Shown here piece by piece: positions 2,362 through 21,080 of a stretch of DNA of 64,000 bases. The notes under the pieces were generated by a model, which searched no databases, had not been told where the DNA came from, and worked only from the letters and a program-made list of their open reading frames with translations. The stretch spans positions 1 to 64,000 of the forward strand of contig JAGGYF010000021.1 in the NCBI GenBank assembly GCA_021162685.1, in the 5' to 3' direction. Within the stretch, counting starts at the first letter, position 1; the number at the start of each line of letters is the position of its first letter. Source of the stretch: Candidatus Iainarchaeum sp. GTDB taxonomy: Archaea; B1Sed10-29; WALL01. Position numbers and translations under genes: made by a program.

Positions 2362-2452
2362 AGGTAACTTTGTTGATAAGAATGGTAAAGTATTTATATT
2401 ACTTCTTTTATAAGGATAGTTATCAAAAAGGTAACTTTGTTGATAAAAATGG
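2362..2452. promoter_or_regulatory. 24-bp direct repeat plus 27-bp imperfect palindrome upstream of the AbiEi gene (putative operator)
   Basis: AGGTAACTTTGTTGATAARAATGG at 2362-2385 and 2429-2452; TTATCAA..TTGATAA dyad at 2420-2446; TATA-like TTTATA between the copies. Confidence 0.6.
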
Positions 2453-3258
2453 AAAAAAGAAGTTTAGGCAAGGAAGGGACAAAACTTATATCTGCCCTCG
2501 AAAGAAGAGGCGCACTAGTTGTGACTATACCCGATGTGTGCAGAATCACGGGCTGGAGCAGGGACAAAGCAAAGATTCTTATGCACAAGCTGAGCAGGAA
2601 GGGGTGGTTTGAGCGTATTGAAAGAGGCAAGTACCTGTACATCCCCATCCGGGCTATTGAAGGAAAGTGGGCTGAGTACCCCTGGCTCATAGTGCCTAAC
2701 CTAGTAGAGGACTACTACATCTCATACATCACAGCCATGAGCTTCTGGGGGTTCACGGAGCAGATTCCCGTTACGGTCTACGTCGCAACAACAAAGCAGA
2801 AGAAGGAGATCGAGTTCCAGAACTATGTATACAAGTTCGTCAAGCTCGCGCCTTATAAGTTCTTCGGCTGGCAGGAAATAGAGCTCAAGGGAGGGTACAC
2901 ATTAAACATGGCATCAAAGGAAAAAACAATAGTGGACTGCTTTGACAAGCCTAAGTACTGCCTAGGGATAGATGAATGTGCCAAGGCTCTCTACAATGCG
3001 CGCAGACAGATCAGCACTAGAAAGCTCACTGATTACGCGTTGCGTATGAGAAATAAAACGCTTGTAAAACGCTTGGGTTATGTGATGGATCTTCTTGGGA
3101 TGGATGTGCCCAAGAAGCTTGAGAAGCTTGTGAGAAACGACAAAAAGTATGTGCCACTTGACCCTCTCGGCAAAGCCAAGGGCTCAACTGACAAGAAGTG
3201 GAAGATAATTAAGAATATGGAAGAAGAATACTTACTTAGCTTTCTGGAGGGCTTCTAA
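2449..3258 (+). CDS. AbiEi-family (type IV TA) antitoxin / wHTH regulator
   Basis: wHTH (LSRKGWFERIERGKY), YISYITAMSFWGFTEQIP, EKTIVDCFDKP, KRLGY motifs; ATG at 2449 preferred over TTG at 2437. Confidence 0.85.
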   Translation: MEKRSLGKEGTKLISALERRGALVVTIPDVCRITGWSRDKAKILMHKLSRKGWFERIERGKYLYIPIRAIEGKWAEYPWLIVPNLVEDYYISYITAMSFWGFTEQIPVTVYVATTKQKKEIEFQNYVYKFVKLAPYKFFGWQEIELKGGYTLNMASKEKTIVDCFDKPKYCLGIDECAKALYNARRQISTRKLTDYALRMRNKTLVKRLGYVMDLLGMDVPKKLEKLVRNDKKYVPLDPLGKAKGSTDKKWKIIKNMEEEYLLSFLEGF

Positions 3259-3299
3259 CTTTGGTCGTATTCCGAACTGGTGCCTAACCGACCTTGTGG

Positions 3300-3347
3300 T
3301 GTAGTGCCTATAAAACATGAAAAACTTTAAATACTATAGGCACTACA
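3300..3347. promoter_or_regulatory. perfect 13-bp inverted repeat flanking the TATA box of the Fic gene
   Basis: TGTAGTGCCTATA (3300-3312) and TATAGGCACTACA (3335-3347) bracket TTTAAATA (3326-3333). Confidence 0.7.
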
Positions 3348-3355
3348 ATATAACC

Positions 3356-4273
3356 ATGAAAAGTAAAGGCTACATAAGGAAGAAAAGGAACGCACAAGGA
3401 TTTGAGTACTTTGAACTCGTGAAGTCAGTGCGCGTGAAAGGAAAGGTGAAGCAGAAGATTGTAAAGTACCTAGGAGGATTTGCAGAGGCCTCAAAATATG
3501 CAAGGAAACACGGACTCAAAATGCCCAAGTCAGATGAGGCAAGGCTTGATGCAGAGATAGAGGAGCTCAGGAAAGAACTCAGAAAGAAGCGCATGCCGAA
3601 GTCAGTAAAGGAGAGGCTGAAAGATGAGCTCATTAAGGACTGGATCTACAACTCAAACTCTATTGAAGGGAACCCACTGACCTATGAGCAGACCGTAACA
3701 TACCTTGAGACCGGCATACCTGCGGGGAGAAAGTCAAAGAGATGGTACAAGGAGGTAGACAACCACCTGAACGCGATTGAGTACGCATTTGAGCTCGCAA
3801 AGAAGAAAAAGATTGAGGAGAGGGACATACTCACAATACAGGCTCTGCTAACAACAGGAACCATCGAGCCTGAGGCAGTCGGGAAGTACAGAAAAGGATC
3901 GGTGCGCGTGAGGACAGACCCTTCGCAGAGCTTTCCAAACGCAGCAAAGGTTCCATCGCTCATGAGCAACCTTGTGTGGTTCATACAGAAGAACCCTGAA
4001 AAGCTTGCGCCAGTGGAACATGCTGCGCTTGCGCACCTGAAGCTTGTGCAGATACATCCATTCAGGGACGGGAACGGAAGGACTGCAAGAATACTCACAA
4101 ACATCATGCTCATGCAGAACGGCTACCTGCCTGTTGTGATAAGGAAGAGGGACAGACCCAAGTATTTCAAACTCATAAAGAGGTTCCAGAAAAAGGGGGA
4201 GTGGCAGCCGTTCGCGCACTACATCAAGAAGCTTCTGAAGAAGGAGTATGAGTTCTATCTTGCGAACACATAG
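3356..4273 (+). CDS. Fic-domain protein (AMPylase) with N-terminal IS1634-like beta-sheet module
   Basis: Canonical HPFRDGNGRTAR motif and inhibitory-type SNSIEGN motif; N-terminus YFELVKSVRVKGKVKQKIVKYLG; start moved to ATG 3356, downstream of the TATA box. Confidence 0.9.
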   Translation: MKSKGYIRKKRNAQGFEYFELVKSVRVKGKVKQKIVKYLGGFAEASKYARKHGLKMPKSDEARLDAEIEELRKELRKKRMPKSVKERLKDELIKDWIYNSNSIEGNPLTYEQTVTYLETGIPAGRKSKRWYKEVDNHLNAIEYAFELAKKKKIEERDILTIQALLTTGTIEPEAVGKYRKGSVRVRTDPSQSFPNAAKVPSLMSNLVWFIQKNPEKLAPVEHAALAHLKLVQIHPFRDGNGRTARILTNIMLMQNGYLPVVIRKRDRPKYFKLIKRFQKKGEWQPFAHYIKKLLKKEYEFYLANT

Positions 4274-4278
4274 CGGGT

Positions 4279-4521
4279 TTAGACCCTTCTCACCATTACG
4301 TCGCTTCCCTCGTTGTACATGTCGACAAGACCCTCATGCTTCAAAAACAGGCATGTTATCAGAATGCGGATTATGTTGTTCACCGGGTGCTTGTCGCTGT
4401 CCTGCGCGGTGTCCTCGGAGACACCCTCCTCACTGAGCCACTTGTACGCGAGCTTCCGCATGTCCCTTATGGATCTCCAGTCAAGCTTCCTGAAGTCCTC
4501 GAGGTACTTCTCATAGGTCAT
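4279..4521 (-). CDS. small hypothetical protein
   Basis: 80-aa ORF with same codon style as the flanking island genes. Confidence 0.55.
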   Translation of the reverse strand: MTYEKYLEDFRKLDWRSIRDMRKLAYKWLSEEGVSEDTAQDSDKHPVNNIIRILITCLFLKHEGLVDMYNEGSDVMVRRV

Positions 4522-4566
4522 TGGTTATGTTTATGGAGAGGGAAGTTTAAGTGGGTTTTGGGGGTA

Positions 4567-5310
4567 TCAGCACGTCACGGGGGCGGAGGTAACCCTCTCT
4601 CCGTATATTATAACAGTTCCACTATGTTGCCCAAAGTTTTCGATTTGACAGGCGGCCTGCTCACCAGAATTAAGATCATGAGGCGGACAGAACCCCAGCC
4701 TCTCATTGTTGTTACCAACGACTTTAAGGGATCCCGCTTTGATCTTGATCCCAGGAGGAGAGGTATTCGCTACCATTATTGTAGAATTGCATGGCTGGGT
4801 TGCACAACACAAAATAGCATACGCTGAAATAGTTGCCGATGTCTTTTCTGCGGGGTACTTCACCGCAAGGCTTGAATCTTGCTCATTCTCTAGAGCATAG
4901 TCTTTTAAAGTCCCATTACAGTATTCATATGCTGACGACCCGAGCCTCATCCAATTAGTTAGAGACAACCCGTACGGAAGTAAGCAAACCATATCTGACT
5001 CTCGCAGCGAAGTGTTAACCTGCACATACACCTTACATCTATCCCCCTCACGCCCAATTACCTCAAAATACTCTGTCTCGTATCTGTCCCCTGTGCTCAA
5101 TTTTGCTTTTTTGCAATTGATTAACTGATTAGAAAAACAAGTTATATTGCTACCACAATCGATTATTTGTACGGAGTTGGAACATAACGACCGATCATTA
5201 ACCCATCTTCCATCGGCACATTGGTAGGTATTTGGTCCAGAAATAAGGTTTAGACAACCCGTTGTTATTATTAACAGGGTCACTAATGGGATAACAAGTG
5301 TCCTACTCAT
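4567..5310 (-). CDS. Cys-rich secreted lipoprotein
   Basis: Lipobox-like TTGC after hydrophobic signal; GGTGA RBS; many Cys. Confidence 0.7.
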   Translation of the reverse strand: MSRTLVIPLVTLLIITTGCLNLISGPNTYQCADGRWVNDRSLCSNSVQIIDCGSNITCFSNQLINCKKAKLSTGDRYETEYFEVIGREGDRCKVYVQVNTSLRESDMVCLLPYGLSLTNWMRLGSSAYEYCNGTLKDYALENEQDSSLAVKYPAEKTSATISAYAILCCATQPCNSTIMVANTSPPGIKIKAGSLKVVGNNNERLGFCPPHDLNSGEQAACQIENFGQHSGTVIIYGERVTSAPVTC

Positions 5311-5621
5311 ATTCTCACCTTTTCATATTTTTGACTTTAGTTTATATAAACATTAGCTCATTAGGTTAAAGGCTCCTACAGAACTGCTTTCTAGACCTGC
5401 TCTAATAATTATCAGGAAAATTTGAAATTTCTCACAACACTTAAAGGGAGACCACAACTTTATTTAGTCCCACGTGTAGCTTGCACAAAAAAATTAAGCG
5501 AAAGAATAGCTATTGGCAACGAGAAAATTATAGGAGGAGGTGAAAAAACATGACCATCTCAAAGTTGATCGGCTTGATTCTTTCACTAGTTAGCTATTGC
5601 TGTGATTAAGATATTGTTGTT

Positions 5622-6104
5622 CTAGTGCTTCCGGTGTTCCTTTATCCACCTTTTTTCAGCAAACCAGCCGGCAATTGCTCCAATAATCATAGCAATTACA
5701 AAATGACAAATTCCAGCTATGATATAAAACGTAGCTCCAAATAATGCAAACAATGTTGGCATAGTGTTGGTCATAGTACCGCTTTCGGTTAGTTGGGGTT
5801 GAGATAAAATCGCGCCTACAATCAAAGATAATAGAGCTGTAACCAATCCTGACGTTATTGAAAATGTAAACCCATATGATACACCCAAAACAACCCCTTC
5901 GCCTTTACATAATCTCTTTCTAAAAGGATACACTAACAACAAGGGTCCTACAATATCCCAAGCAAAAGTAAATACAAGAAAGAAAAATATGGCAAGTCCG
6001 CCAATCAGTGGGATTAGTCCAAAAAAAGTTGTTGCCATTGAATGAAAAATACCTATACATATGCCACCGATCAACCCTATCCCCACAACCTTTAACAAAT
6101 GCAT
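5622..6104 (-). CDS. Gly-rich multi-pass membrane protein (DUF5518-like)
   Basis: About 4 hydrophobic helices; GGAGG RBS. Confidence 0.7.
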   Translation of the reverse strand: MHLLKVVGIGLIGGICIGIFHSMATTFFGLIPLIGGLAIFFFLVFTFAWDIVGPLLLVYPFRKRLCKGEGVVLGVSYGFTFSITSGLVTALLSLIVGAILSQPQLTESGTMTNTMPTLFALFGATFYIIAGICHFVIAMIIGAIAGWFAEKRWIKEHRKH

Positions 6105-6119
6105 GTTTGTCCCTCCTAT

Positions 6120-7289
6120 TTAAGTATTAAATTTTATTATAATTTGTTGCTTATCCAGCAGTCCATTGTGGAATTGAAGTTCTAATGGTGTGGTCTCATC
6201 AAGTATTTCAAAGACTAAGCTTCCCTCTTCTTCATCTCCTGGTTTTATGCTATATATCCTATCACTAAGCCAACTATTGTGAGTATATTGATACCCTCTG
6301 TCCACAATTAACTTTGCATATCTATAGTGTAGTGGAAAGTTCGTTTCTCTTACTCCATTATTTTTGGCTACTATGTTTATTATCACAAATTTATAACCCT
6401 CATCAGGTTCAAATAAAGAAATTTGTTTAGTGATTCTGGGTTCTTCGAATATTATCGTGATATTTCCTATTGTGATTTGTTCACCAGCATTTGCAATAAT
6501 TGGTGGTGGTGAAATAACAGGTGGCGGTGAAATTTCAAACACATAATAATTTGTATTGTTATCATTTACTGCAGTGTTGCCATTTTCATCAGTCGAAACT
6601 ATCTTAAACTTATATGTTCCTGGATCTAGTTCTTCGATGGTGATTGTATGTGTTGTAGTCATAGAAGGATCGTATACTTCTCTGTTTGGATAAAATGCTC
6701 GCCAGAATACCACCTTGCTATCTGCTGGCTCATCAGATAACCATTCTATAGTTACTGAATCTTGAGTAATGTTTACTACTCTCACATTCGAAATCTTGGG
6801 TGGCTGAAGATCCAATTCTGGGGATGGAGGCATTTTTATTCTGATTGTTTTCTTTACAAACCCTTCCCTAAAACATATAGTAATTTCAGTAGGTGCTTCA
6901 TCTTCAGGTATCTCAAAACTTATCATGACCTTTTTCTCTTCCTTTGGTTTAAATTTAGTATATCTTATTAATGGTTCAATGACCTCATAATCGTAGAGAG
7001 ATCCTCTGTCTGTCTTCAGCTTTAGTTCAGAAAAAGAAGGGAAATGTTCCTCTTCTGTCCCATTATTTTTTACATCTACACTAACTACTACAAGTTTATA
7101 ACCTGAAGTGGCAATGTTGTTATTAAATTCTTGTGCAAAACCAAACGAATTGAATACTAATATAAAATTATCAACGTGTACCTCTTCACGAAATTCAACA
7201 AAACCCTTTTGAGTTTTCTCTGTTGCTATATCTGTTATACACCCACTAATCAAAAATATCAACATTAAAATTAAAAGAACCCTCGTCAT
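6120..7289 (-). CDS. lipoprotein with two DUF4352-like Ig domains flanking an FN3 domain
   Basis: ISGC lipobox; repeated GYK.V.....KNNG...D.G..Y...FEI units; central FN3 (VTIEWLSDEPADS..PGTYKFKI). Confidence 0.75.
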   Translation of the reverse strand: MTRVLLILMLIFLISGCITDIATEKTQKGFVEFREEVHVDNFILVFNSFGFAQEFNNNIATSGYKLVVVSVDVKNNGTEEEHFPSFSELKLKTDRGSLYDYEVIEPLIRYTKFKPKEEKKVMISFEIPEDEAPTEITICFREGFVKKTIRIKMPPSPELDLQPPKISNVRVVNITQDSVTIEWLSDEPADSKVVFWRAFYPNREVYDPSMTTTHTITIEELDPGTYKFKIVSTDENGNTAVNDNNTNYYVFEISPPPVISPPPIIANAGEQITIGNITIIFEEPRITKQISLFEPDEGYKFVIINIVAKNNGVRETNFPLHYRYAKLIVDRGYQYTHNSWLSDRIYSIKPGDEEEGSLVFEILDETTPLELQFHNGLLDKQQIIIKFNT

Positions 7290-7383
7290 GTTGTATTTTA
7301 TGAGTCAAATAGAAATATATGTTTTTCGTCGAAATGTTTTAAAATATTTAATGATTGTTGTAGTTTACATCTAGTCATACCTG

Positions 7384-7728
7384 CTACCCGCACCTTGAAA
7401 TTGCCATTGCTTTCTTCTTTGCTTCCTCTTCTAACTCAGAAGCATACTGATAACAAATCCTCTGATCTAATTCTAGCAATTTCTGGACTACTTCATTTTC
7501 TTTGTTTAGTATGTAAAGCTGCGCCCTTCCTACTTTTCTTGTTTTTTTTATCAATCCGTTCCTAGCAAGTTCGTCAAAAATCTTCCTTATAGTCACTCTT
7601 GACATGCCTATCTCTCTACAAACGTCTGCCATTGAATAATCAAAAATATCATTCTCAATAAAGAAATCCAGCACCCTTAACTGCGACGTTTTACCCAAAA
7701 GTTCTAACAACAATGACATTCGCACCAC
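7384..7728 (-). CDS. winged-helix DNA-binding protein
   Basis: FDYSMADVCREIGMSRVT HTH followed by wing TRKVGRAQLY. Confidence 0.8.
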   Translation of the reverse strand: MVRMSLLLELLGKTSQLRVLDFFIENDIFDYSMADVCREIGMSRVTIRKIFDELARNGLIKKTRKVGRAQLYILNKENEVVQKLLELDQRICYQYASELEEEAKKKAMAISRCG

Positions 7729-7894
7729 ATCCTCTATCCAACCCCATCCTTATTTGCTATAGGACTTATGTTATGCATATGTATAATGCATAGACTATAT
7801 GGTTATTTTTAGTATCATTTAGTATATAAAACGTTAACATTAAATGTTTAGCAACGAAACGAATATATATATAAGTTTGAGTGTAAATTTGGGC

Positions 7895-8200
7895 ATGAAG
7901 TCTAATAAGAAGGACAGACCTTCTCCCAAAAAACTCCGCGCGTGGGTGATAAGAAAGCTTTTTCGACAAGGGTACATTGGTAGGCGACATTGTGGGATAG
8001 ATGACATACTAAGGCCATTACGGCATGATGAAAGGTCTCGGAGAATTGTCAAAGACAAGATAATCCCAGAGTTATTGAAGGAAGAAATGCTCCTTTCTCC
8101 ACATAAAGACAGATATTCCATAAACCCACGAAAGATGGGAGAGGTGAAAATAGTACTCAAAAAATATTTTCCAGAATTAATAAATGGGATAATGGAGTGA
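7895..8200 (+). CDS. hypothetical wHTH-like protein, divergent from the preceding regulator
   Basis: ORF 7844-8200; ATG 7895 lies downstream of a TATA-rich tract; ends with YSINP wing-like motif. Confidence 0.6.
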   Translation: MKSNKKDRPSPKKLRAWVIRKLFRQGYIGRRHCGIDDILRPLRHDERSRRIVKDKIIPELLKEEMLLSPHKDRYSINPRKMGEVKIVLKKYFPELINGIME

Positions 8201-8450
8201 ACAACACGTGGGTAAATAAAAGGCTTGAGCATAAAAAACTGCAGAAGCTAGAAAGGATATTGGGTCAAGTTTGTGAGTTTGCATTTTATCTACCTCCTGA
8301 GCCCCAGGATTTCTTCGCAGGCCTATGGCTCTGCCAACGCTGGGGCTCACCAATACTACGAAAAGTTCATCCACCAATAACGTTACACTACTCATAGACG
8401 CAAAGTATTTAATAGCATAAATGCGATAAGGAGCATGTAAAGGTGGTCTT

Positions 8451-10286: not shown

Positions 10287-10306
10287 TATAGTGGAGAGGG
10301 AGTAGG

Positions 10307-11288: not shown

Positions 11289-12819
11289 ATGCCAAAGAAA
11301 AAGAGAGTGTTAATTGTATCGCATACCAGGGCCGATGTCATTTGAGAGAAAGGTGGCAAATCCTCCACTGGGAGCAATGATGATTGCTGATGCAGTAGGG
11401 GGAGAGGTCTATCCGATTAATGCATCAGTTGAGAAGATCCCTGAATTTGTTAAAAGGAGAAGGAAGCCGTATCATGTTGTGGGATTTACTACGTGGCCAG
11501 TGCACTATTTGTACGAAGAAGCAGAGACTATACGGAATCTTGTTGAGGTTATAAAGAGAATAAGAAAAGAGAGGCCAGAGACACTGATTGTTTTGGGTGG
11601 TCACGGAGTACATAATTTTACAGAGCAGTTTATGAAGAATACGCATGCGCATGTTGGTGTTCTGGGTGTGCATGGAGAAGCAGTAGGTGCTATGAAGGAA
11701 TTGGTTGAGAAACTGCCGGAAAACGCTGTGAGAGATGGAGAGTTGACTGAAGAGGCATTTAATGCGCTTAAAGAAGTGAAGGGACTTGTAATAAAGTATA
11801 AGGGAAAACTTTATCACACAGGAGAAAGAGAAGTTCCTCATAGTTTGCCAGCTGTTTCTTACAGAGCAGACAGGGGAGGAGGACAAAAGGTAGCAAAGGA
11901 TAGTGGTCGCGGGAGGGTTGGAGTGGTTGCTGTTTTTCCTGAGAGAGCCCTATGTGAAAAATCTTTGTCGCTCCCGTGTTTGTATTGTGACATGGGGGTG
12001 AAACTGCAGAAGTTCAAGGAGGATAAAGAACTGATGAGGTCAATAACTAAGCCAGATGTGGATAAAACTGTTGCAGAGATTGTAAGAGGAGTTGCTACGT
12101 TTAGGAGGAAAAGGGTACCCGTTTCGTTGTACCATATCTCTTTTCAGTCAGATGCACTCCGCCCTGATTTTGTGTTGGAGGTTATGAAACGGCTTGAGGG
12201 GAAGGGGTATGATCTGAAAAAGTTTGAGTTTGGATGGTTTATGAGGCCAGACCAGCTCACAGATGAGAATATAAAAAAGATAAAAGAGATGAGGAAAAAG
12301 GCATCTATTTCGCTTGCTGTGGGATTGGAATTCGGTAATACTGAAGAGCTAAAAGATGTAAGATTTGCAAGAGGGAAGTATAGATATCCGAGAGATTTGA
12401 GGAAAAGGTTGAAGGATTTGGCAGAGAGTGGCGTATTTGTTAATGCATTCCATATCTTGACAACACCGTTAACAGATCTTGAGAAGTTGAAGAAGAATAT
12501 TGAGTTTGCAGAATGGTCCTGTGAGAATTTGGATCCGCCTATTGTAGTGCAGCCATTTATAGTTCCTGCTGGGTATATGCGTGAGTTAGGATTGCCAGAG
12601 ATGGAGACTGGGTTTGAGATTGATGGGAAGGAATGGATCTTTCCTAAGAGATTTCCATTCATAGCAGATGTAGAGGAACTGGAAAAGATGAGAGATTATC
12701 TGAAAGAGAAAATAAAGGAGTATGGTGGAAAAACGTTGCCTGTACTTCATGCAGCAGGGATATTGTTGAAGACCATTGATAGGGAGATAGAGTTGAAGAG
12801 AGCTAAGAGAAGTAGCTAA
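11289..12819 (+). CDS. B12-binding radical-SAM-like protein, apparently frameshifted near the N-terminus
   Basis: PPLG and IVLGGHG B12-domain motifs, CX7CX2C, VGLEFG. N-terminal MPKKKRVLIV (ATG 11289) is in a different frame from the main ORF 11314-12819. Confidence 0.7.
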
Positions 12820-13067: not shown

Positions 13068-13529
13068 ATGCCTGTTTGTGAGATTTGTGGAAAGGAAACT
13101 AGACATGCAAAAATTGTGTTTATTGAGGGGAGCAAGTTAACTGTTTGTGAGAGATGTGCTGGGCATGGGAATGTGATAAGCGACTACGGAAGAGAGAGAA
13201 AGGTTTATGTGAAAAGGCCGAGGTACAGAAAAGAGGAGAAAACATTTGATGTTGTTGCTGATTATGATAAGATTGTGAGGAGGGAGAGGGAGAAAAGGAA
13301 GTGGAAGCAGGAGGAATTAGCAAAGAAGGTAAATGAGCCAGCATCGTTGATAGAGAGGATAGAGGCTGGGAAGACTATTCCTTCTGAGAAGGTTGCTAGG
13401 AAACTAGAAAAGGTTTTAGGAGTAACGTTATTAGAAGAAGTTCAGAATACAGTTGTTGAAATGCCTGAGGAAAAAACGGAGGCAGTTACGTTAGGGGATA
13501 TTGTGAAGATAAGAAAGAGAAAAAGTTAA
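13068..13529 (+). CDS. mbf1: archaeal multiprotein bridging factor aMBF1
   Basis: CEICG..VCERC zinc ribbon, Cro-type HTH, C-terminal TLGD motif. Confidence 0.92.
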   Translation: MPVCEICGKETRHAKIVFIEGSKLTVCERCAGHGNVISDYGRERKVYVKRPRYRKEEKTFDVVADYDKIVRREREKRKWKQEELAKKVNEPASLIERIEAGKTIPSEKVARKLEKVLGVTLLEEVQNTVVEMPEEKTEAVTLGDIVKIRKRKS

Positions 13530-13885
13530 GGGAAGACAACTGTTACATACTCTACGTTCTCCCCATATATTGTTATCTGGCCTGAAACATTTCCAAGGGC
13601 ACATGTAGTTGATTCCCCTGGTTCTAGTTGAGGTACAGAGCAGGAGAGCGATTCGTTTTCTGCTACGTAAAGTGTTGTTGCATCAAGGGTTTTTGTGTCT
13701 ACATTTGTTATGGATATGTTTCCAGTGGTTGTATTCAGGATTGAGACATCTATTTGGACTTTCTCTGGCTCTTCCTGGGGCGGTTGAATGCTTTGGCCAG
13801 CTGCCCAGAAGTAGAGGGAAACACCAATGATTACTGCGATTGCGATGAGAAAAACTGCTGAAACAGTTTCGCTGATGCCTCTCAT
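13526..13885 (-). CDS. type IV pilin-like protein
   Basis: Class III signal peptide MRG/ISETVSAVFLIAIAV. Confidence 0.75.
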   Translation of the reverse strand: MRGISETVSAVFLIAIAVIIGVSLYFWAAGQSIQPPQEEPEKVQIDVSILNTTTGNISITNVDTKTLDATTLYVAENESLSCSVPQLEPGESTTCALGNVSGQITIYGENVEYVTVVFP

Positions 13886-15039
13886 TTTTTCACCAAGTAG
13901 TAGATGGTTTGTATTGAAACAGAGATAAGTAGGTAGAAGGATTTGAAAAGTGCGTTGATGAATAGGGAAAGATCAAAGTGCATTATGTTGAGTATGTAGT
14001 TGAGGAACAGAGATGCAAAGGAAATGGTGATTCCTACAAAGAAGATGAGGACGTACAGGGAGAGGACGGAAGGCCAGTGTTTCTTCGTGAATAGAATGCT
14101 TCCTTTTATTGCCTCCTTAACGCCTTTCTTTTTTGGAAGTAACGCTGCCTGGGCGACGAAACTTATGAGGAAGAGGTATATGATTGAGAGGGTTATGGTA
14201 AAGATGGATAGAAGTGAGGTTGCGATGTTTAGGTATTGAGGAAAGTAGATGACCCATATACTTGAAAAGAAGAATAGGATTGCGGCTGGGATGGATGCTG
14301 CGAGTATAGAGAGGAATACTGGCTTAACGTGTTTGATGCTTTTCATGAGCTCTTCCTTCTGTTTTATGTTTCGTATGACAAAGGTAAGAGAGATGGAAAG
14401 GAAGATGAGGGAGAAAATAATTAGGAGTAAGCTGTATAATGGACTTGTTGTATCTATGTATTCTGCTGTGAGTATTGGGATGAGTGTAAAGAGGAAAACT
14501 GGGAGATATAGTCGTAGTGAGAGGTTTTGTTTTGATTTTGAGAATGCTTTAAGGATTTCAGACTTCCCTGTTCCGAGGATAAATGTACATATGGCTCCGC
14601 CTAGTGCGCCTGCGTATCCAAGAGATCCTGTGAGGATTACAAAGAGGAAGAAGAGCTCCTGGATAATCTGATAGGACTGAGCAGTGTTTGAGAAGAGGAC
14701 TGTGAGGAATTGCGTTGAGAGCGACATAAGGAGTACCAAAATAAATACAAGGATGAGTGATGCAGTTATGCCAGAGAAGAGTCCAGAAAGCGTGCCGCGT
14801 TCAAGGCGGGATTTCAATTGCTTTGTTGCGAAATAGGAGGAGATGAACCCACCTATAAGTGAAGAACCGATGCCGCCTACAAGGTATAAAAAGAGTAGCA
14901 TGCCAGCGAGTTCTTCCTGTGTGAATGTTGTTTCAGAGAGGAGGGGTTGCATAAAGAGCATTGAGAGGCCAAATAGGGCTGCTGTTATAATACCTCCTAC
15001 AATTGCTGGTGGGATGAGTTCCCTGAGTTTTACTGCCAT
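13882..15039 (-). CDS. multi-pass membrane protein
   Basis: About 10 hydrophobic helices; overlaps the pilin start (ATGA). Confidence 0.75.
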   Translation of the reverse strand: MAVKLRELIPPAIVGGIITAALFGLSMLFMQPLLSETTFTQEELAGMLLFLYLVGGIGSSLIGGFISSYFATKQLKSRLERGTLSGLFSGITASLILVFILVLLMSLSTQFLTVLFSNTAQSYQIIQELFFLFVILTGSLGYAGALGGAICTFILGTGKSEILKAFSKSKQNLSLRLYLPVFLFTLIPILTAEYIDTTSPLYSLLLIIFSLIFLSISLTFVIRNIKQKEELMKSIKHVKPVFLSILAASIPAAILFFFSSIWVIYFPQYLNIATSLLSIFTITLSIIYLFLISFVAQAALLPKKKGVKEAIKGSILFTKKHWPSVLSLYVLIFFVGITISFASLFLNYILNIMHFDLSLFINALFKSFYLLISVSIQTIYYLVKK

Positions 15040-15078
15040 ACGATCACATATGGAATAAGGGAAAGAGGATATAAAAAC

Positions 15079-15808
15079 TTATGCGAAACGCTCCTCACGG
15101 ATCTTTCGCCTTTTCTTTATAATGTCCTTGTAGTAGTCTTTGCCCTTTTGGGTGAGATGGACATTTTTCTCTATCCTGATAAGGTTCTCTTTTTCAAGGT
15201 TAGAAAGAACATTGCTCCAGAGCTGTATCTGTTTTTGTTTTATTGGTTCGTATGCCTGCATTAGATTGTAGTATTATCCTCATTTGTTGCAATGTGTTCA
15301 GAAGTGAAAAGAATGTTCTTCATGATCTTGTTTATGTGCTTTGCGTCTTCTGGATGGAAAAGATGGGGAGAGGCACAGGAAGTATGTCAATATGGATCTT
15401 TCCTTTTTCAAACTCCTTCACCAGATCCTTATTCCTATTTGCTATGTTGTGCTCCTTCATTAGTTTACTGTAAAGACGGTTCCATTGCCTTGCATGCTTT
15501 CCACATTGTGTTTCAAAGTCGCGGTATACTCTCAAAAGGAAATTTCCATCTATTGTTTGAGGATGGTCATCTGAGGAGTATACAAGGAGTAGGTCTATAT
15601 CTGGTAATATTCCGCTTTTCTCTGGGGGTGGTGAATGCTCTATCCTATGGATAACGTCATAGTCACCATAAAAGGGATAGCCCAATCCGAATACGCCAAT
15701 CACAAAAGGAAGTTCTGAGAAAAGTTTCCCAATAGTCTTTGCTTGTTCAAGTGCTTTTTTGTATGGCCGTGACCTGTAATACTCCTTTACCTTTTCCTTC
15801 AAATCCAT
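15079..15808 (-). pseudogene. Pol-beta-type nucleotidyltransferase-like gene, interrupted
   Basis: GxG..PDIDLL and HIDILP motifs in ORF 15332-15808. Protein-like reading continues in another frame to 15261, then a wHTH-like tail at 15079-15261. Confidence 0.5.
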
Positions 15809-15858
15809 ATATGTATTTTCTCAAAAGTTATTTAAATGTTGATGTGATAACTGTTAGC

Positions 15859-17193
15859 ATGATTACTACCACACTCGTAGAATTGCTTTTCTGGGCATTG
15901 GTTCAAGGTGTAATAGTAGGAGTGATTATAAAGAAAGTATATAAAAGGGTGGAGCTTGCAGGTCCTTTACTGCTTTTCAAATCAAAAAAAGGATTGAGAT
16001 GGATTGAACGGCAGAGCAAGCGTTTTAAGAGGTTTTGGCCAGTATATGGAAGTTTTGGCATTATATTGGCATTTGGTTTTGCTGGTGCAATGTATGTCTT
16101 CAGAAAGAAAGTGCTGTGGAAGAGAATTGTTTTAAGTTCATTGGCAAGTTTGTTTTTGGTCGCGCCATACATCTCAAGTATTATTTTATTTGGTGCAAAA
16201 GAGGTAATCCATTTAGATTCAACCCTCTTCCTCATGCTACTAAACTTTGCTTTTGGTTTCTCTATCTCAACGTTTTATCTGTTGCTCTCCCAGGCAGTTA
16301 CAATAGTACATAACTATATAGTGCAAGCACCAGTAGTTGCAATGGTGGGGCCCGCTCTTCCTGGCATAAATGTACAGGGGAGCCCGATACAGGGTATTCC
16401 CTGGTATGGATGGTTTGCATTTCCTATTCTGATTGTAGTCCATGAGTTCTCCCATGGAATCCTAGCAAGGTTTCACAAGTTTAGGGTAAAGGCTACAGGT
16501 TTAGTTATGCTTGGTTTACTCCCGCTTGGCGCATTTGTAGAACCAGATGAAAAACAACTAAGCAGAGGTGCTGTACAAAAGAGGCTGCACGTCTTCTCTG
16601 TGGGAAGCACTGCAAACTATCTAACTTCTGTAGTAGTTACCCTCCTCTTGTTCTCTGCCCTGTATGGCATGAATGCAACTGGAATCTACGAGGAATACGA
16701 AAAGTACCTGGACCATCCGATGGTTACAGTGGTTTCTCCAGACAGTGACGCAGTTGGAAAACTGGAGCCAGGAATGAAGATCCTCTCTGTAAATGGAAAT
16801 GAAACAAAAACAGTCCTTGATATAAACAAGGCCACAGAGTCAGTTGGGCCTGGAAACATAGCAGTTATTGAAACAGACAAAGGAACATTCAATATAACAT
16901 TGAACAAGGATGCGAAGATAGGGATAAGACTGGAACAGACGTATAAACCACTGCCTTTGCACCTAAGTGTTATACAAGGAATAATAAGCTTTTTGGGACT
17001 GGTTGCCTTTTTCAATCTCGTTGTTGGGATCATGAATCTCTTGCCTGCATACCCTCTTGACGGAGGATATATGCTGCAGGGGTTACTAGAGAACAAGGTA
17101 AAAAAGAAGACAGCCAGGAAATTTGTGAAATTTTTGAGTATATTTATACTAGCTTTGTTTATAGTGAACATCCTTCCGTTGATTTTTAGGTAG
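15859..17193 (+). CDS. site-2 protease (M50) with PDZ domain
   Basis: HEFSHG, GAFVEPD and NLLPAYPLDGG motifs; PDZ insert. Confidence 0.92.
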   Translation: MITTTLVELLFWALVQGVIVGVIIKKVYKRVELAGPLLLFKSKKGLRWIERQSKRFKRFWPVYGSFGIILAFGFAGAMYVFRKKVLWKRIVLSSLASLFLVAPYISSIILFGAKEVIHLDSTLFLMLLNFAFGFSISTFYLLLSQAVTIVHNYIVQAPVVAMVGPALPGINVQGSPIQGIPWYGWFAFPILIVVHEFSHGILARFHKFRVKATGLVMLGLLPLGAFVEPDEKQLSRGAVQKRLHVFSVGSTANYLTSVVVTLLLFSALYGMNATGIYEEYEKYLDHPMVTVVSPDSDAVGKLEPGMKILSVNGNETKTVLDINKATESVGPGNIAVIETDKGTFNITLNKDAKIGIRLEQTYKPLPLHLSVIQGIISFLGLVAFFNLVVGIMNLLPAYPLDGGYMLQGLLENKVKKKTARKFVKFLSIFILALFIVNILPLIFR

Positions 17194-17198
17194 CCCTC

Positions 17199-18494
17199 TC
17201 AAATTTGTGTGTTTATTAACCACTTCCATAGTGGAACAAATCTAACCTTCTTCCTATTAATAATTTCTTCTGATTCATAATCGTCTGTGATAACAAGGAG
17301 ATTTTTACATTTTAACTCTGTACTTGCCTTTAAGAGGCCCTTTATCTCCCTGCTTTCCACATCTTCCTTTGAAGATGCAGATGTTACTTGGATAAGTTGC
17401 TTGACTGTTCTGCCGAGTGTCACTACAAAATCAACTTCATGCTGCTTATAATCTCTCCAATAATACAGAGCAAGGTCACTATTCCAATAACTTCTTTTCC
17501 TCATAAGCTCAACTGCAACAATGTTCTCCATCAGTCTCCCCCTATTTTTGGAAAATCTGAAACCGAGGGCGTTGAAAAATCCAGAATCAATGCAGTACAC
17601 CTTCTTTACACTCAATAGCTGTTGCTTAAGAGAATAACTAAACTTCGGAACAAAAAAGAAAAGTCTTGCAGTATTAAAGTAGCGTGAAAATCGCTCAACA
17701 GAATCTAGCGAAAGATTAACAACATGCTTCAACTTGTTGTATGATTGCATTGTTGATATATGCGAAAGGTAGAGATGGGCAAGATTTTCTGCTTTTGCTA
17801 TTTCTTTTATCTCAAAACGTTTTACAATATCTTTTATGATAATATCATTAAAATACTCACGAAGAAGTGTTGTCTTTTCTCTTTTATCTTTTAGCAAGAA
17901 AACTTTCGGAAAGCCACCAAACATTATATACTTTTCTAATGTCCTGAGGAGTTTTATTCTCTTAGTGTATACATCAATTGCAGTGGGGTCTATCCCGTTC
18001 CACATCAACGCTTCTCTGAAACTCAAAGGGAACAACTCAAAGTCTTTATGTCTTCCAGTAAGAACTGTTGCATACTCCTCACTCATGAGTTTTGAAGAAG
18101 AACCTGTCACGACTACATCAATGTTTTTTGCGTCAAGATATAGGCGTGCTGTTTTTTCCCAACCATCAATATTTTGTACCTCATCCAAAACAAGAAGTCG
18201 GGGGAGCCCTTCATTTATATGTTTTTGATATATCTCTACAATCTTTATAATGTCTTCTGATGTGCATTGCTTAAGCCTTGGGTCCTCAAAATTTATTATC
18301 AATGATTGTTTTTTTGGGAATGCAGAAGCTAACATGTATGCTAATGTACTTTTACCAGACCGCCTTATGCCCTTTATAACAAGTATTGTGCCTTTCGTTG
18401 GCTTTGGGACACTCTCCCTTTTCTTTGCCTTCTGTTCAAAATTACCCCATAGATTCCAATCAACAAGTGCCTCTAGTATCGTTGACTCGTTCAT
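17199..18494 (-). CDS. AAA_14 + DUF4143 ATPase
   Basis: GIRRSGKS, LDEVQ, TGSS, GGFP, KVYCID, EVDF motifs. Confidence 0.9.
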   Translation of the reverse strand: MNESTILEALVDWNLWGNFEQKAKKRESVPKPTKGTILVIKGIRRSGKSTLAYMLASAFPKKQSLIINFEDPRLKQCTSEDIIKIVEIYQKHINEGLPRLLVLDEVQNIDGWEKTARLYLDAKNIDVVVTGSSSKLMSEEYATVLTGRHKDFELFPLSFREALMWNGIDPTAIDVYTKRIKLLRTLEKYIMFGGFPKVFLLKDKREKTTLLREYFNDIIIKDIVKRFEIKEIAKAENLAHLYLSHISTMQSYNKLKHVVNLSLDSVERFSRYFNTARLFFFVPKFSYSLKQQLLSVKKVYCIDSGFFNALGFRFSKNRGRLMENIVAVELMRKRSYWNSDLALYYWRDYKQHEVDFVVTLGRTVKQLIQVTSASSKEDVESREIKGLLKASTELKCKNLLVITDDYESEEIINRKKVRFVPLWKWLINTQI

Positions 18495-18583
18495 AGCATT
18501 GTTTATGTGGGAGGATATTTATAAGTCTATCGGTAAGTTTTTGTAAAAAGCTACCGATGTCGTATATAATATCGCTACTCACC

Positions 18584-18952
18584 CTACGAACCGGACCTCT
18601 CAAATGCCTCCCAGCCAATAAACAGAACAACTGCTGATACAAAGAATGCAGGGATAACCAGGGACATGCCTATATTCTTGATCACCATTATTACCACTAT
18701 CAACAGCCCGCCAATGCCAGGCACAATATTCAGAAACCTATCAAATGGCTTCCATGTCTTGCACTTCTCTTTGCATCCATTGTATCCTATCTTAAACCCA
18801 ACACTCCCCAGAATAATTGAGCCTATGGCTGTTATTAGTGGTGTGTAGTATTCAAAAGGAATGCCAAAGTAGTTGAAGGAATATGCTATTGAGATCCCTA
18901 TGCCTGCAAGGATGAACGCATACATGATGCCAAACATAACAGCCTTGTGCAT
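18584..18952 (-). CDS. small 4-TM membrane protein
   Basis: 122-aa hydrophobic ORF. Confidence 0.65.
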   Translation of the reverse strand: MHKAVMFGIMYAFILAGIGISIAYSFNYFGIPFEYYTPLITAIGSIILGSVGFKIGYNGCKEKCKTWKPFDRFLNIVPGIGGLLIVVIMVIKNIGMSLVIPAFFVSAVVLFIGWEAFERSGS

Positions 18953-19180
18953 CTATATCACAATCTTTGTCGGTGCTTTCAGCACAATTTTCCTTGGTTT
19001 CTGCACAGGCCCTGGTGTTGAGTATGTAGCTACTGTGCTCTCATTTAAACACCCGATACCTTTTTGGTAGCCAACATCTGCAAATGCAAGGAATGAAATT
19101 ATGGAACATATAAGAAAAGCTGCGGGAATTGATACAAAGCCGGCACTATGAAATAAAAAGATAAAACCCAAAAATAGGTC

Positions 19181-20269
19181 ATGGTGTTTGTTAGAAAAGA
19201 GAAAGTGAAAGGCCACGAGTACCTATACCTTGTCAAGAGCCTGTGGGTTGAAGGAAAAGGACCGCGACAGAAGACTATAAAATATTTGGGCAAAGCAGAT
19301 TCCGACAGCCAGCTGCTGGCAGGGTTTCCTAGTAAGCAGTATTACGAAAAAGTAGCACAAGAAACAGGATTTAGACTGGACAAGTTGGAGATCGTCTATA
19401 GGATAAACAACCTTCTTTATGAGATGAACAAGAGAGGCGTTATGAGCAAGTTTGTTATGAGAGGAGGAACAGCGTTGAATCTTATCTACTTTAACATTCC
19501 TAGGTTATCTGTTGATATTGATCTAAACTACATTGGGCACTTGGATAGAGAGAAGGCAATTAAAGATAAAGAGGTGATCAGAAAGAAGTTGTTCGAAATC
19601 GGAAGATCGCTTGGTTACGAACCCAAGTTAGCGAAAACCTATTCACAGGATAGATTTGAGTTTTACTACAAGAACATTTATGGTCAAAAAGCACACATCA
19701 AGGTTGAAGTTAATTATATGAACAGAGTGCCTGTTCTTCCTGTCAAAAGGAGAGTGTTGACAACACCGTTTAAAGATGCACCAAAAGCAAGAGTGAAGGT
19801 ATATTGTCCAGAGGAACTTTTTGGTTCAAAGCTTGCAGCACTTGTGGATCGTGCGTACCCAAGGGATATATTTGACGCATATCTTCTCAGCAAAAGCATA
19901 AGAAGGTTTGACGCAAGACTCATAAGAAAGTGTTTTGTGTTCTATGCAAGCCTGAGGAAGAACTATCCTGAATGGAATAGAAAGATAACACTTACAGAGC
20001 GGTCGTATTCAAATTATGTGAAACCTCTTCTTGGTGCCCAGAAGCCAAGACGTGTCGATGTTGTCAATGGAGCACAGAAGGTTCTAAACAAAATACTTAT
20101 GCTTACTAAGGGCGAAAGGGAATATATACGCAACCTTTGGGCAGGCAAATGCGTTCCATCACTTCTCTTTAGGAGGGGAGAGGCCAACAGGAACTTGATG
20201 CTACACCCAACTGTGCTCCAAGTTATTCATTATGTGGATAAAGGGCGTAAATCTCGTTCGGGACAATAA
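19181..20269 (+). CDS. AbiEii-family nucleotidyltransferase toxin with N-terminal IS1634-like beta-sheet module
   Basis: GGTALN..RLSVDIDL, KVEVN, KLAAL..R..PRDIFD motifs; N-terminus YLYLVKSLWVEGKGPRQKTIKYLG. Confidence 0.9.
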   Translation: MVFVRKEKVKGHEYLYLVKSLWVEGKGPRQKTIKYLGKADSDSQLLAGFPSKQYYEKVAQETGFRLDKLEIVYRINNLLYEMNKRGVMSKFVMRGGTALNLIYFNIPRLSVDIDLNYIGHLDREKAIKDKEVIRKKLFEIGRSLGYEPKLAKTYSQDRFEFYYKNIYGQKAHIKVEVNYMNRVPVLPVKRRVLTTPFKDAPKARVKVYCPEELFGSKLAALVDRAYPRDIFDAYLLSKSIRRFDARLIRKCFVFYASLRKNYPEWNRKITLTERSYSNYVKPLLGAQKPRRVDVVNGAQKVLNKILMLTKGEREYIRNLWAGKCVPSLLFRRGEANRNLMLHPTVLQVIHYVDKGRKSRSGQ

Positions 20270-21080
20270 GGTTCCACTCCTCGGCATACACGCCCCTCCT
20301 CACATCCCTGTCAAGATAAAACACCTTTTCAGTTTCTAGGGAATTCTTGAGGCGCTCAATGTCCCTACTTCTAATTCTCCCGAGCCTAGACACCCCAGTA
20401 GATTGGTACTTTAGGACAGTAAGGAAAAAACCAACTTTGGCATTAAGACTCATGTTCTTGTGTTTTAGCGCATACTCTACAACTGTTTTGCTGTCCAAAC
20501 CAGTAAAGGAGAGTATGGAGCGTGCGAACTCCCCCACACCACCAGCATACTTCAGGCGCTCAATACAGTCAACAAATGTTACCTCCTTGGTTGATGTGCA
20601 GATGCGCATACCCTCCCTATCATAGTACTCAAACTCCCCCCACCGCGCAGAGGGGGCAACCCTCTTGAACAAGATTCCACTATATTCAAGTTGTCTGAAG
20701 GGAACCTCACTTGTTATGTACACAAGATTGAAGACTGATGTTGCACCCCCGTGCAACTCAAGCGCAGAGTGATGTGAAACGTAGCAGTACCCACCAATCT
20801 TGTTCATAAGGCCTTGGGCAACATGAAACTTGTCCGCAATGAACTCCTTTCCAACATATCTGTAGGGGACAAGTGCGTAGAGGCCAGCCCCCACCCTCTT
20901 GATGAGCCCTTTCTTTCTCAGGGACTGGACAGCATTTGTAGCTTTTCTGTATACTTTTGTTTTTGGCATTCCTCTGCAGTGCTTGCCTACAAGCTCCCTG
21001 ACCACAGAGAAATCAAACACCCACATCCCGTCCCAGAGCAGGCTTTTGTACACATTATCTGCAATGCCCATTTCTACCAC
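20223..21080 (-). CDS. AbiEi-family antitoxin, convergent with the toxin
   Basis: LRKKGLIKRVGAGLY, YVSHHSALELHG, EVTFVDCIER..YAGG, WNLIVP motifs. Confidence 0.85.
   Translation of the reverse strand: MVEMGIADNVYKSLLWDGMWVFDFSVVRELVGKHCRGMPKTKVYRKATNAVQSLRKKGLIKRVGAGLYALVPYRYVGKEFIADKFHVAQGLMNKIGGYCYVSHHSALELHGGATSVFNLVYITSEVPFRQLEYSGILFKRVAPSARWGEFEYYDREGMRICTSTKEVTFVDCIERLKYAGGVGEFARSILSFTGLDSKTVVEYALKHKNMSLNAKVGFFLTVLKYQSTGVSRLGRIRSRDIERLKNSLETEKVFYLDRDVRRGVYAEEWNLIVPNEIYALYPHNE

Follow-up and report, generated by a model that had tools for sequence, protein, structure and literature searches.

Two capped enzyme genes and their AbiEi-type neighbours

The window, by which we mean the whole 64,000-nucleotide stretch of DNA that was analysed, contains two enzyme genes with a similar N-terminal extension, here called the module or cap, at loci separated by 15.8 kb of unrelated genes. 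The first locus begins with an AbiEi-type regulator or antitoxin gene (P0001, 2437..3258, plus strand, 273 aa) which matched Pfam AbiEi_1 (E 1.4e-6, 29 bits, cut-off 22.2) and, under the cut-off of 25, AbiEi_4 (E 2.8e-5, 24.6 bits); its match to NCBIfam TAA_AbiEi was weak. P0001 shares 59% identity with the AbiEi genes which are paired with capped AbiEii genes in a relative's genome (G002), and no AbiEii partner adjoins it in the window. A HEPN gene of Csm6 type is found immediately upstream of the pair formed by P0001 and the capped Fic gene.

The capped Fic gene (P0005, 3356..4273, plus strand, 305 aa) probably starts at 3356, where the gene caller places its start, within an open frame of 3317-4273 (+); the module starts at Met1 in relatives of this protein. 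Residues 19-53 of the open frame read YIRKKRNAQGFEYFELVKSVRVKGKVKQKIVKYLG, and the module (3356..3475, plus strand, approx. 40 aa) ends in KYLG. The sequence SNSIEG (residues 113-118, 3653..3670, plus strand), located N-terminal to the Fic core on the same chain, fits (S/T)xxxE(G/N), which we take to be the Fic auto-inhibition motif, presumably of 'class II'. Pfam Fic was matched at residues 166-265 (E 9.5e-18), the stretch HPFRDGNGRTAR (4055..4090, plus strand) has the form HxFx(D/E)GNGRxxR of the Fic active-site motif, and the solved structure closest to the core was FICD (E 1.5e-28 over residues 89-308), all of which place the enzyme among Fic-domain proteins. None of the solved Fic structures includes the module, the best aligned stretches beginning at query residue 74 at the earliest.

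At the second locus is a capped AbiEii nucleotidyltransferase gene (P0003, 19181..20269, plus strand, 362 aa) with Pfam AbiEii matched at residues 78-266 (E 2.3e-31). Its module occupies residues 1-37 (19181..19291, plus strand), of which residues 3-37 read FVRKEKVKGHEYLYLVKSLWVEGKGPRQKTIKYLG. The GG ... DxD nucleotidyltransferase motif (19463..19522, plus strand) consists of G95, G96, D112 and D114, which were invariant in an alignment of five capped AbiEii proteins and which we assume to be catalytic by analogy with pol-beta-type nucleotidyltransferases. Converging on this gene is an AbiEi-like gene (P0004, 20223..21080, minus strand, 285 aa) whose own Pfam matches are weak and which was recognized by its similarity to P0001 (BLASTP E 3e-17 over 181 aa). 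Thus both capped genes do adjoin an AbiEi-type gene, as the earlier note had claimed, P0001 being assigned through Pfam AbiEi_1 and P0004 through BLASTP.

The N-terminal module and IS1634-family transposases

BLASTP aligned the two N-termini with 18 identities in 36 positions (E 4e-5) and found no further segment between the Fic and AbiEii proteins at E below 1. After both window rows had been removed, 50 standalone modules taken from other genomes and from metagenomes were made into a hidden Markov model (HMM), which was run against the 18,105 six-frame open reading frames of the whole 1.11-Mb genome. It matched exactly two, the Fic and AbiEii frames (E 7.6e-17 and 4.9e-11), and no other at E ≤ 10. 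By their sequences, therefore, both N-termini represent the same homologous module of approx. 40 aa, which bears out the suggestion in the earlier note that a single motif is carried by both enzymes, and that canonical Fic and AbiEii proteins lack it agrees with the extent of the Pfam Fic and AbiEii models, which exclude the module.

When residues 1-40 of the AbiEii protein were modelled with AF2 and an alignment of 52 sequences, pLDDT was 86-92 (89, 91, 92 and 86 for the first four ten-residue blocks) and strands were placed at residues 2-9, 12-23 and 27-38, while single-sequence AF2 of the Fic module gave strands at 5-11, 17-27 and 30-38 with low confidence. The module is thus predicted with high confidence to be a three-stranded antiparallel beta-sheet, a bare meander with exposed edge strands. 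It is rich in basic and aromatic residues, and the first 40 residues contain on average 10.1 K+R versus 3.0 D+E over the 52 aligned modules, a net charge of approx. +7. The AF2 model shows the three-stranded sheet which the earlier note had predicted; the AP2- or integrase-N-like character expected there drew no significant match. Foldseek returned nothing at E ≤ 0.001 (best E 1.1), and in an exhaustive VIA-align search every chain stayed below Z 5, those ranked first being small, unrelated sheets; PC4/Pur-alpha-like folds reached Z 3.0-3.4, within the chance range of the tool, and the integrase arm-type domain 3jtz scored Z 2.8 at rank 32.

The module is real and is unannotated in Pfam, NCBIfam and the PDB, although it may already stand in the InterPro, CDD or HH-suite databases. 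Among the 52 modules no Pfam-A 2025 family recurred at E ≤ 10, NCBIfam 20.0 held no model for the module (15 modules gave two scattered chance matches), and no PDB sequence covered it (best profile match E 0.24).

The earlier note had likened the motif to the N-terminus of IS1634-family transposases, and this resemblance was confirmed. A profile (A5) made only from standalone modules and the two window sequences, with no transposase included, retrieved six PF01609 proteins and P0158 from a 5.8-billion-protein database at E 1e-10 to 1e-14, and all seven passed NCBIfam NF033559 with 219-350 bits (cut-off 100). Four transposase N-termini picked solely by NF033559 were aligned with A5 by hhalign at a probability of 97.1% (E 7.1e-11, 49 columns). 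Sequence comparison therefore confirms the module as the N-terminal domain of IS1634-family transposases, at the same Met1 position. The NF033559 model begins at approx. residue 27 of these transposases and so takes in no more than the final strand; in Pfam this N-terminal region is without a model, and we found no published description of its function.

Fusion partners and the role of the module

The module was found in 3120 of 1.84 billion cluster representatives at E ≤ 1e-3, in 164 of them at E ≤ 1e-10, and in 63 of 401 archaeal genomes; its hosts are archaea and some bacteria. It starts at residues 1-4 in 130 of the best 150 matches and also occurs alone, as proteins of 50-80 aa. Some proteins have it in tandem, as P0006 does with two stretches within 102 aa. 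By hand count, the 120 matches listed contained a B12-binding pair in 24, Uma2 in 21, Fic in 11, DDE_Tnp_1 in 6, and AbiEii, DnaJ, NUDIX, Zn_ribbon_recom and PF20600 in one each, with 53 having no Pfam domain at all. Fusions to HNH and MC1 were present among the best 150 matches, and one protein combined the module with HTH_32/29/23. For the DnaJ, NUDIX and Pterin_4a partners there is no obvious need for DNA. Module sequences did not cluster by fusion partner, and the two window modules, 46% identical to each other, are no closer than either is to modules on other partners. The module is thus promiscuous, being fused to many unrelated C-terminal domains, and is probably a general module rather than the marker of a new toxin system.

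The earlier note had proposed just such a system, in which an AbiEi gene and a capped toxin, either Fic or AbiEii, form a modular defence family and the cap, seen there as domesticated from a transposase, serves toxin autoregulation or targeting. Both capped window enzymes adjoin AbiEi-type genes, as do the capped AbiEii genes of G002, and the Csm6-type HEPN gene upstream of the first pair would suit a defence setting. For Fic, however, the proposal is contradicted by gene neighbourhoods. Capped Fic genes numbered 30 copies in 25 archaeal genomes, and the window copy was the only one with an AbiEi-type neighbour; the other 29 had none, a contig end cutting off the upstream side in two of these loci, and genome-wide searches placed no AbiEi_1 or AbiEi_4 match within 20 kb of any of the 29. 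As most module-bearing proteins are non-toxins, the module is often standalone and the two window modules show no special kinship, we regard a family of AbiEi and capped toxins as highly improbable. Co-occurrence with AbiEi was upheld for capped AbiEii (3/3 loci) and failed for capped Fic (1/30).

Among archaea the capped Fic instead occurs widely as a solo gene, and the AbiEi gene beside it in the window would be incidental. No neighbour family recurred in three or more capped Fic loci except further Fic copies. In a Fic toxin-antitoxin pair a separate antitoxin gene supplies the inhibitory helix in trans, while the inhibitory-type motif of the capped Fic sits in cis on its own chain. With its FICD-like core and cis motif the protein therefore does not have the appearance of a toxin-antitoxin toxin and, there being no conserved neighbour either, we rejected it as a two-gene toxin. 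Its annotation as the toxin partner of AbiEi is unwarranted, and the pairing of Fic with AbiEi in the window is not to be taken for a defence system. The module on Fic would rather yield a FICD-like AMP-transferase that is tethered to DNA, regulated by it or able to repress itself.

For capped AbiEii, AbiEi adjacency holds as it does for uncapped AbiEii, but the arrangement differs. The window AbiEii gene and P0004 are convergent, with 3' ends overlapping by 47 nt, and G002 has two capped AbiEii loci which are also convergent with AbiEi (overlaps of 27 and 50 nt), so that all three capped loci examined, from two related genomes, share a convergent overlapping AbiEi. By comparison, those uncapped AbiEii genes for which an AbiEi was detected (10 genes, five genomes) were all co-directional with it, and the window's own genome also holds two canonical uncapped AbiEi-AbiEii pairs. 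Of the nearest 120 AbiEii relatives, 5 carried the cap; the fusion is rare and to date is known from DPANN archaea, and cap and convergent arrangement may reflect a single evolutionary event. Since a convergent toxin gene is not co-transcribed with abiEi, the cap plausibly would give the toxin gene control of its own promoter, or would target the enzyme.

What the module itself does is best explained, in our judgement, by a small, autonomous, promiscuous basic domain which heads IS1634 transposases and which probably binds DNA; homology, predicted fold, distribution, fusions and gene order are observed, DNA binding and the roles on Fic and AbiEii inferred. Pointing to DNA binding are its N-terminal place in a DDE transposase, its fusions to nuclease and chromatin proteins, and the B12-binding_2 + B12-binding fusions among its relatives, in which it sits where CarH/LitR-type regulators have a MerR domain. 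One of three such B12 fusions examined for photolyase adjacency lay directly upstream of a photolyase gene. No operator-like repeats common to the upstream regions of the capped genes were seen by eye.

A bare three-stranded meander predicted to have exposed edge strands could also act as an oligomerisation or protein-protein sheet, through edge-to-edge dimerisation or docking of partners, with no binding of nucleic acid. Tandem duplicates such as P0006, the enzymes and chaperone J-domain among the partners which have no obvious DNA link, and the Fic protein CbFic2, whose activity is described as being switched by dimerisation (PMC10628234), are all consistent with such a role. The net charge of approx. 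+7 over 40 residues and the HNH, Uma2 and MC1 fusions argue against it. So do its place at the N-terminus of DDE transposases and its standing where CarH has a DNA-binding domain, and we consider this role rather unlikely. A second alternative is RNA or single-stranded nucleic acid (tRNA, for instance) as the ligand, the module bringing AbiEii and other enzymes to RNA. AbiEii/DUF1814 relatives of MenT type modify tRNA, so an RNA ligand is conceivable for a module this basic, and there is a weak resemblance to PC4, Pur-alpha and Whirly-type ssDNA/RNA-binding sheets, although at Z 3.0-3.4 it falls in the chance range of VIA-align. Transposases and B12 regulators, however, work on double-stranded DNA, and 115 of the nearest 120 AbiEii relatives do without the cap, which is therefore dispensable for substrate recognition; this leaves an RNA or single-stranded ligand a quite improbable one.

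Carrying DNA binding further, we tentatively suggest, at somewhat less than an even chance, that the module ('IS1634-N') is an undescribed, widespread sequence-specific DNA-binding domain repeatedly recruited by archaea to make one-component regulators and DNA-gated enzymes. These might comprise a B12 light sensor without a MerR domain in ammonia-oxidising archaea, a pan-archaeal DNA-tethered FICD-like AMP-transferase, and a DPANN variant of AbiE in which the toxin would act as repressor of the promoter from which it is expressed, with the antitoxin gene overlapping the toxin gene in antisense. Should DNA binding be the function of the module, IS1634 transposases would have their missing end-recognition domain named and thousands of short 'hypothetical' archaeal proteins would gain a function. 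For DPANN and ammonia-oxidising archaea, where regulators are poorly known, candidate transcription factors would also come to light, among them a B12-dependent sensor whose DNA-binding head is new.

Comparison with known systems

The window proteins have a domain in common with the IS1634 (IS4-related) transposases but are not members of that family, since the DDE catalytic domain (PF01609/NF033559) present there is absent from both the Fic and the AbiEii protein, and NF033559 found no match in their own genome. The integrase arm-type, Tn916 Int-N and AP2 domains resemble the predicted module in being small antiparallel sheets of three strands, rich in basic and aromatic residues, at the N-terminus of an enzyme of recombinase type, but no significant sequence or structure match was obtained (3jtz at Z 2.8, no Pfam match at E ≤ 10) and a relationship would be tentative. 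The B12-dependent light-responsive regulators CarH and LitR resemble relatives of the module, rather than the window proteins, in their B12-binding_2 + B12-binding domains; CarH has a MerR-type DNA-binding domain, which the module replaces in these relatives.

FICD/HYPE and the window Fic both have an intact Fic motif with a (S/T)xxxE(G/N)-type motif upstream on the same chain, but FICD has a TPR N-terminus in place of the module. CbFic2 (PMC10628234) and CccR (PMC9755527) are described as bacterial proteins in which a Fic AMP-transferase is joined to a C-terminal HTH DNA-binding domain, and in which binding to DNA either switches the enzyme's activity or represses the promoter of its own gene. 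The window Fic is likewise an AMP-transferase joined to a putative DNA-binding domain; unlike them it carries an N-terminal beta-sheet of presumed function and its hosts are archaea. Canonical AbiE is described as an autoregulated bicistronic operon of abiEi then abiEii (Dy et al. 2014, PMC3985639). Like this type IV toxin-antitoxin or abortive infection system, the window combines a PF08843 nucleotidyltransferase whose GG...DxD is intact with an adjacent AbiEi-type gene, but the abiEi-then-abiEii operon is replaced by convergent genes with the 47-nt 3' overlap and the toxin has an extra N-terminal domain, making the capped convergent AbiEii a small, testable departure from the canonical AbiE operon.

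The module on the Fic and AbiEii proteins of the window

The Fic gene lies in an open frame at 3317-4273 (forward strand) with a likely start at 3356, giving a protein of 305 aa as reported by the gene caller, and its Pfam Fic domain covers residues 166-265 (E 9.5e-18). The AbiEii gene (19181-20269, forward strand) encodes a protein with a Pfam AbiEii domain at residues 78-266 (E 2.3e-31). BLASTP aligned the N-termini of the two proteins with 18/36 identities (E 4e-5), and no segment outside the N-termini aligned at E below 1. An HMM of 50 standalone modules, taken from other organisms and leaving out both window sequences, gave exactly two matches among the 18,105 ORFs read in six frames from the 1.11-Mb genome, and these were the window copies (E 7.6e-17 and 4.9e-11). 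The proposal of the earlier note that one motif is carried by both enzymes was thus confirmed by BLASTP and by an HMM of outside sequences, which links the two N-termini and matches nothing else in the genome. A loose regular expression run over six frames of the genome found nothing beyond the two known copies, and a word-indexed search with the 45-aa N-terminus of Fic, a method too insensitive for such a short region, returned only the query itself. The two modules share 46% identity over match columns and either one compares with the modules on other partners at class means of 0.39-0.58; they are not nearer to each other than either is to modules found elsewhere.

Each enzyme gene also adjoins an AbiEi-type gene, as the same note had stated. 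The gene next to Fic (2437-3258, forward strand) scored above the Pfam AbiEi_1 cut-off and the gene next to AbiEii (20223-21080, reverse strand) matched it by BLASTP (E 3e-17). A Csm6-type HEPN protein (570-1793, forward strand; Pfam Cas_Cas02710, E 1.1e-25) is encoded just upstream of the AbiEi-Fic pair, and an ATPase with AAA_14 and DUF4143 domains (17199-18494, reverse strand; E 7e-35 and 3e-25) is encoded on the opposite strand approximately 700 nt upstream of the capped AbiEii. The 16-kb span between the loci is not one island, because ordinary genes lie between and beyond them: a B12-binding radical SAM enzyme (11314-12819, forward strand), an M50 peptidase (15739-17193, forward strand) and FtsZ (23644-24720, reverse strand).

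Annotation, distribution and transposase relatives of the module

In its relatives the module starts at the initiator methionine, and in 130 of the 150 best database matches the alignment begins at residues 1-4. The consensus is M-x-[FY]-[VI]-R-x-K-x-[IV]-K-G-x-x-Y-x-Y-L-V-x-S-x-R-x-x-G-K-V-R-Q-K-V-x-x-Y-L-G, and the first 40 residues of 52 aligned modules contain on average 10.1 K+R against 3.0 D+E. AlphaFold2, run with an alignment of 52 sequences, predicted three antiparallel strands (residues 2-9, 12-23 and 27-38) with pLDDT values of 89, 91, 92 and 86 over the first four ten-residue blocks. Foldseek against the PDB gave no match at E <= 0.001 (best E 1.1) and no chain reached Z 5 in an exhaustive search with VIA-align, where the lower scores included an integrase arm-type domain (Z 2.8, rank 32) and sheets of PC4/Pur-alpha type (Z 3.0-3.4). 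Fold comparison is uninformative for so small a sheet and provides no evidence of a new fold. That these strands serve as an oligomerisation sheet is in our judgement unlikely, and a role of this positively charged domain in binding RNA or single-stranded DNA less likely still; we prefer DNA binding, on the grounds set out in the last section.

Pfam searches of 52 modules gave no recurring match even at E <= 10, NCBIfam searches of 15 modules gave two scattered matches which we read as chance, and a sequence-profile search of the PDB gave no match (best E 0.24). The nearest ESM Atlas clusters were unnamed hypothetical proteins of 47-48 aa. The sole named lead there was DUF6788 (score 0.76); the DUF6788 (PF20586) proteins of three loci (L059-L061, in genomes G014, G056 and G032) have a Cys-rich motif, CGKxNCxC, and after it a hairpin, HGPYWY...NGK...Y[IV]GK, which is similar to strands 2-3 of the module, and a distant kinship is possible. 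Full-text literature searches found no publication describing the module. It is a real, widespread domain which is without annotation in the Pfam, NCBIfam and PDB libraries searched.

HMMER searches of 1.84 billion cluster representatives gave 3120 matches at E <= 1e-3 and 164 at E <= 1e-10. Short proteins were the majority among the best 150 of the 3120, and the Pfam tally for these 150 was B12-binding 5, AbiEii 3, DnaJ 2, and one each of Fic, Pterin_4a, HNH and MC1. For longer proteins we counted partners by hand in the 120 best retrieved by profile A5, which was built only from standalone modules and the two window sequences. B12-binding_2 plus B12-binding domains were present in 24 (some named Nitrosarchaeum), Uma2 nucleases in 21 (some cyanobacterial), Fic/Doc in 11, DDE_Tnp_1 in six, and AbiEii, DnaJ, NUDIX, Zn_ribbon_recom and PF20600 in one each, while 53 had no Pfam domain, a number of these bearing the label Woesearchaeota or Nanoarchaeota. 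An archaeal sample contained 90 matches in 63/401 genomes (E <= 1e-6), and in the phylum of the window's organism the module was present in 7/31 genomes (E <= 1e-5). Open frames under 200 aa held 46 of the 90; the 44 longer matches, classified with local seeds and Pfam, comprised 28 Fic, eight IS1634 transposases, three AbiEii, three B12 fusions, one HTH_32/29 protein and one unknown. From this breadth of fusion partners and from the standalone forms it follows that the module is a promiscuous domain whose presence does not mark a protein as a toxin.

The HTH protein (locus L078, G266:C44, 1417-2064, reverse strand) consists of 215 aa with the module and HTH_32/HTH_29/HTH_23, and possibly represents the DNA-binding portion of a different kind of transposase. 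Standalone module genes of 57-62 aa at L056, L057 and L058 (genomes G021, G023 and G027) lie in a neighbourhood conserved across three genera of one family, which suggests that the short ORFs are real genes. Downstream of them on the opposite strand is an ORF of 188-194 aa, and the one tested, that of L056, has a winged-helix domain. The B12 fusion at L052 (G033:C1, 5246-6082; module, B12-binding_2 and B12-binding) is directly upstream of a DNA photolyase gene (6084-7409). No photolyase neighbour was found at the B12 fusions L073 and L074, and photolyase adjacency as a general trait (1/3) was set aside.

The resemblance of the motif to the N-terminus of IS1634 transposases, which the earlier note had put forward, proved right. 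From a collection of 5.8 billion proteins A5 retrieved six DDE_Tnp_1 proteins and a further protein, P0158, and 7/7 scored above the cut-off of the NCBIfam IS1634 model NF033559 (219-350 bits vs 100), a model which begins at about residue 27 of these transposases, so that of the module it spans no more than the last strand. For an independent check, NF033559 alone was used to pick four transposases in related genomes, and their first 60 residues were aligned; A5 matched this alignment with a probability of 97.1% (E 7.1e-11, 49 columns). An earlier comparison, in which three of the sequences had been chosen with the module HMM, had given 96.9%. No IS1634 transposase was found in the window's own genome. 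The domain connects IS1634 transposases to many archaeal proteins.

Gene neighbourhoods of capped Fic and capped AbiEii

The census of capped Fic comprised 30 genes in 25 genomes, two weaker matches having been added. A four-sequence AbiEi HMM run on the flanks of all 30 found AbiEi nowhere but in the window, and genome-wide searches with Pfam AbiEi_1 and AbiEi_4 found none within 20 kb of the 29 others, of which two have the upstream side truncated by a contig end. Two weak AbiEi_4 matches did lie on contigs with a capped Fic gene, but 23 and 40 kb distant. No neighbour family recurred in at least three capped Fic loci except further Fic copies. In the closest relative, G002, the ORF that precedes the orthologous capped Fic (34% identity, full length) has no relation to AbiEi. 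The adjacency of AbiEi thus fails to hold for Fic (29/29 other genes without such a neighbour) and is best read as incidental. The new system of AbiEi with capped toxins put forward in the earlier note is unsupported, since the Fic-AbiEi pairing occurs only in the window (1/30) and the module is found on many non-toxin proteins; we regard it as very improbable.

Among solved structures the Fic core is nearest to human/animal FICD (E 1.5e-28, residues 89-308). An intact HPFRDGNGRTAR motif, which we take to be the Fic motif, is present in the chain, with SNSIEG, presumably an inhibitory-type motif of the (S/T)xxxE(G/N) type, upstream of it. The single-sequence AlphaFold2 model of the whole protein was poor (mean pLDDT 45) and was used for secondary structure only. 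Capped Fic occurs widely as a solo gene, carries a putative inhibitory-type motif in cis and does not look like the toxin member of a gene pair. The AbiEi at 2437-3258 looks like an orphan of a capped-AbiEii kind of locus, because it has 59% identity to the AbiEi genes paired with capped AbiEii in G002. An antisense 12-aa match to the C-terminus of a capped AbiEii from G002 (3235-3270, reverse strand; 83% identity, E 0.052) overlaps the 3' end of this AbiEi gene; it was rejected as an AbiEii remnant, the match probably being forced by conserved AbiEi coding sequence. Some genomes have two capped Fic genes near each other, divergent or tandem, as at L085 (G167:C3, 4129-5019, reverse strand, and 6042-6959, forward strand) and L100 (G095:C2, 1589-2521 and 4696-5649), and the window's genome has a second short Fic/Doc-like ORF (C24:7585-7692).

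Capped AbiEii is rare. The module was present on 5/120 nearest AbiEii relatives, namely the window protein P0003, P0010 and three metagenomic proteins (P0057, P0270, P0299). In a collection of 185,579 species genomes, from which records of the window's own genome were possibly left out, only one Candidatus Iainarchaeum MAG, G002, gave matches that extended beyond the cap, at two loci; this MAG belongs to the same family as the window's organism. In all three capped loci with visible context the AbiEi and toxin genes are convergent, with 3' ends that overlap by 47 nt in the window and, at the two G002 loci, by 27 and 50 nt. Among uncapped AbiEii genes for which an AbiEi was detected (five genomes), 10/10 were co-directional with it and nine had abiEi first; two of these co-directional pairs, both canonical, lie in the window's own genome, outside the window (C12:17225-18291, forward strand; C36:33169-34298, reverse strand). 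According to Dy et al. (2014; PMC3985639) canonical abiEi followed by abiEii forms an autoregulated bicistronic operon; nine uncapped pairs are alike in having abiEi first, whereas the capped loci are convergent. The link between cap and convergent arrangement is drawn from two related genomes and may go back to one evolutionary event.

Proposed function and comparison with known proteins

The most likely function of the module is in our view DNA binding, which we favour with some reserve on grounds that are indirect: its N-terminal position in transposases, its MerR-like place, the photolyase gene that adjoins one B12 fusion (1/3), its DNA-related partners (HNH, Uma2, MC1 and transposase-type HTH) and its positive charge. 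End-recognition domains are usually found at the N-terminus of DDE transposases. A look by eye for common operator motifs upstream of capped genes gave nothing usable. We infer that the module is a small DNA-binding-type domain fused to effector domains. On AbiEii it could give a separately transcribed toxin gene its own control, whereas on Fic its role would be to tether the enzyme to DNA or to gate it there, or to enable Fic to repress its own promoter.

In CarH/LitR regulators a MerR DNA-binding domain stands where the B12 fusions have the module, and the L052 protein has a CarH-like layout with the module instead of the MerR domain. For Fic, the reports on CbFic2 (PMC10628234) and CccR (PMC9755527) assign DNA tethering or gating, or repression of the own promoter, to a C-terminal HTH. 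As described there, these proteins and the window's Fic are alike in joining Fic to a DNA-binding-type domain, which in CbFic2 and CccR is the C-terminal HTH and in the window's Fic would be the N-terminal module.
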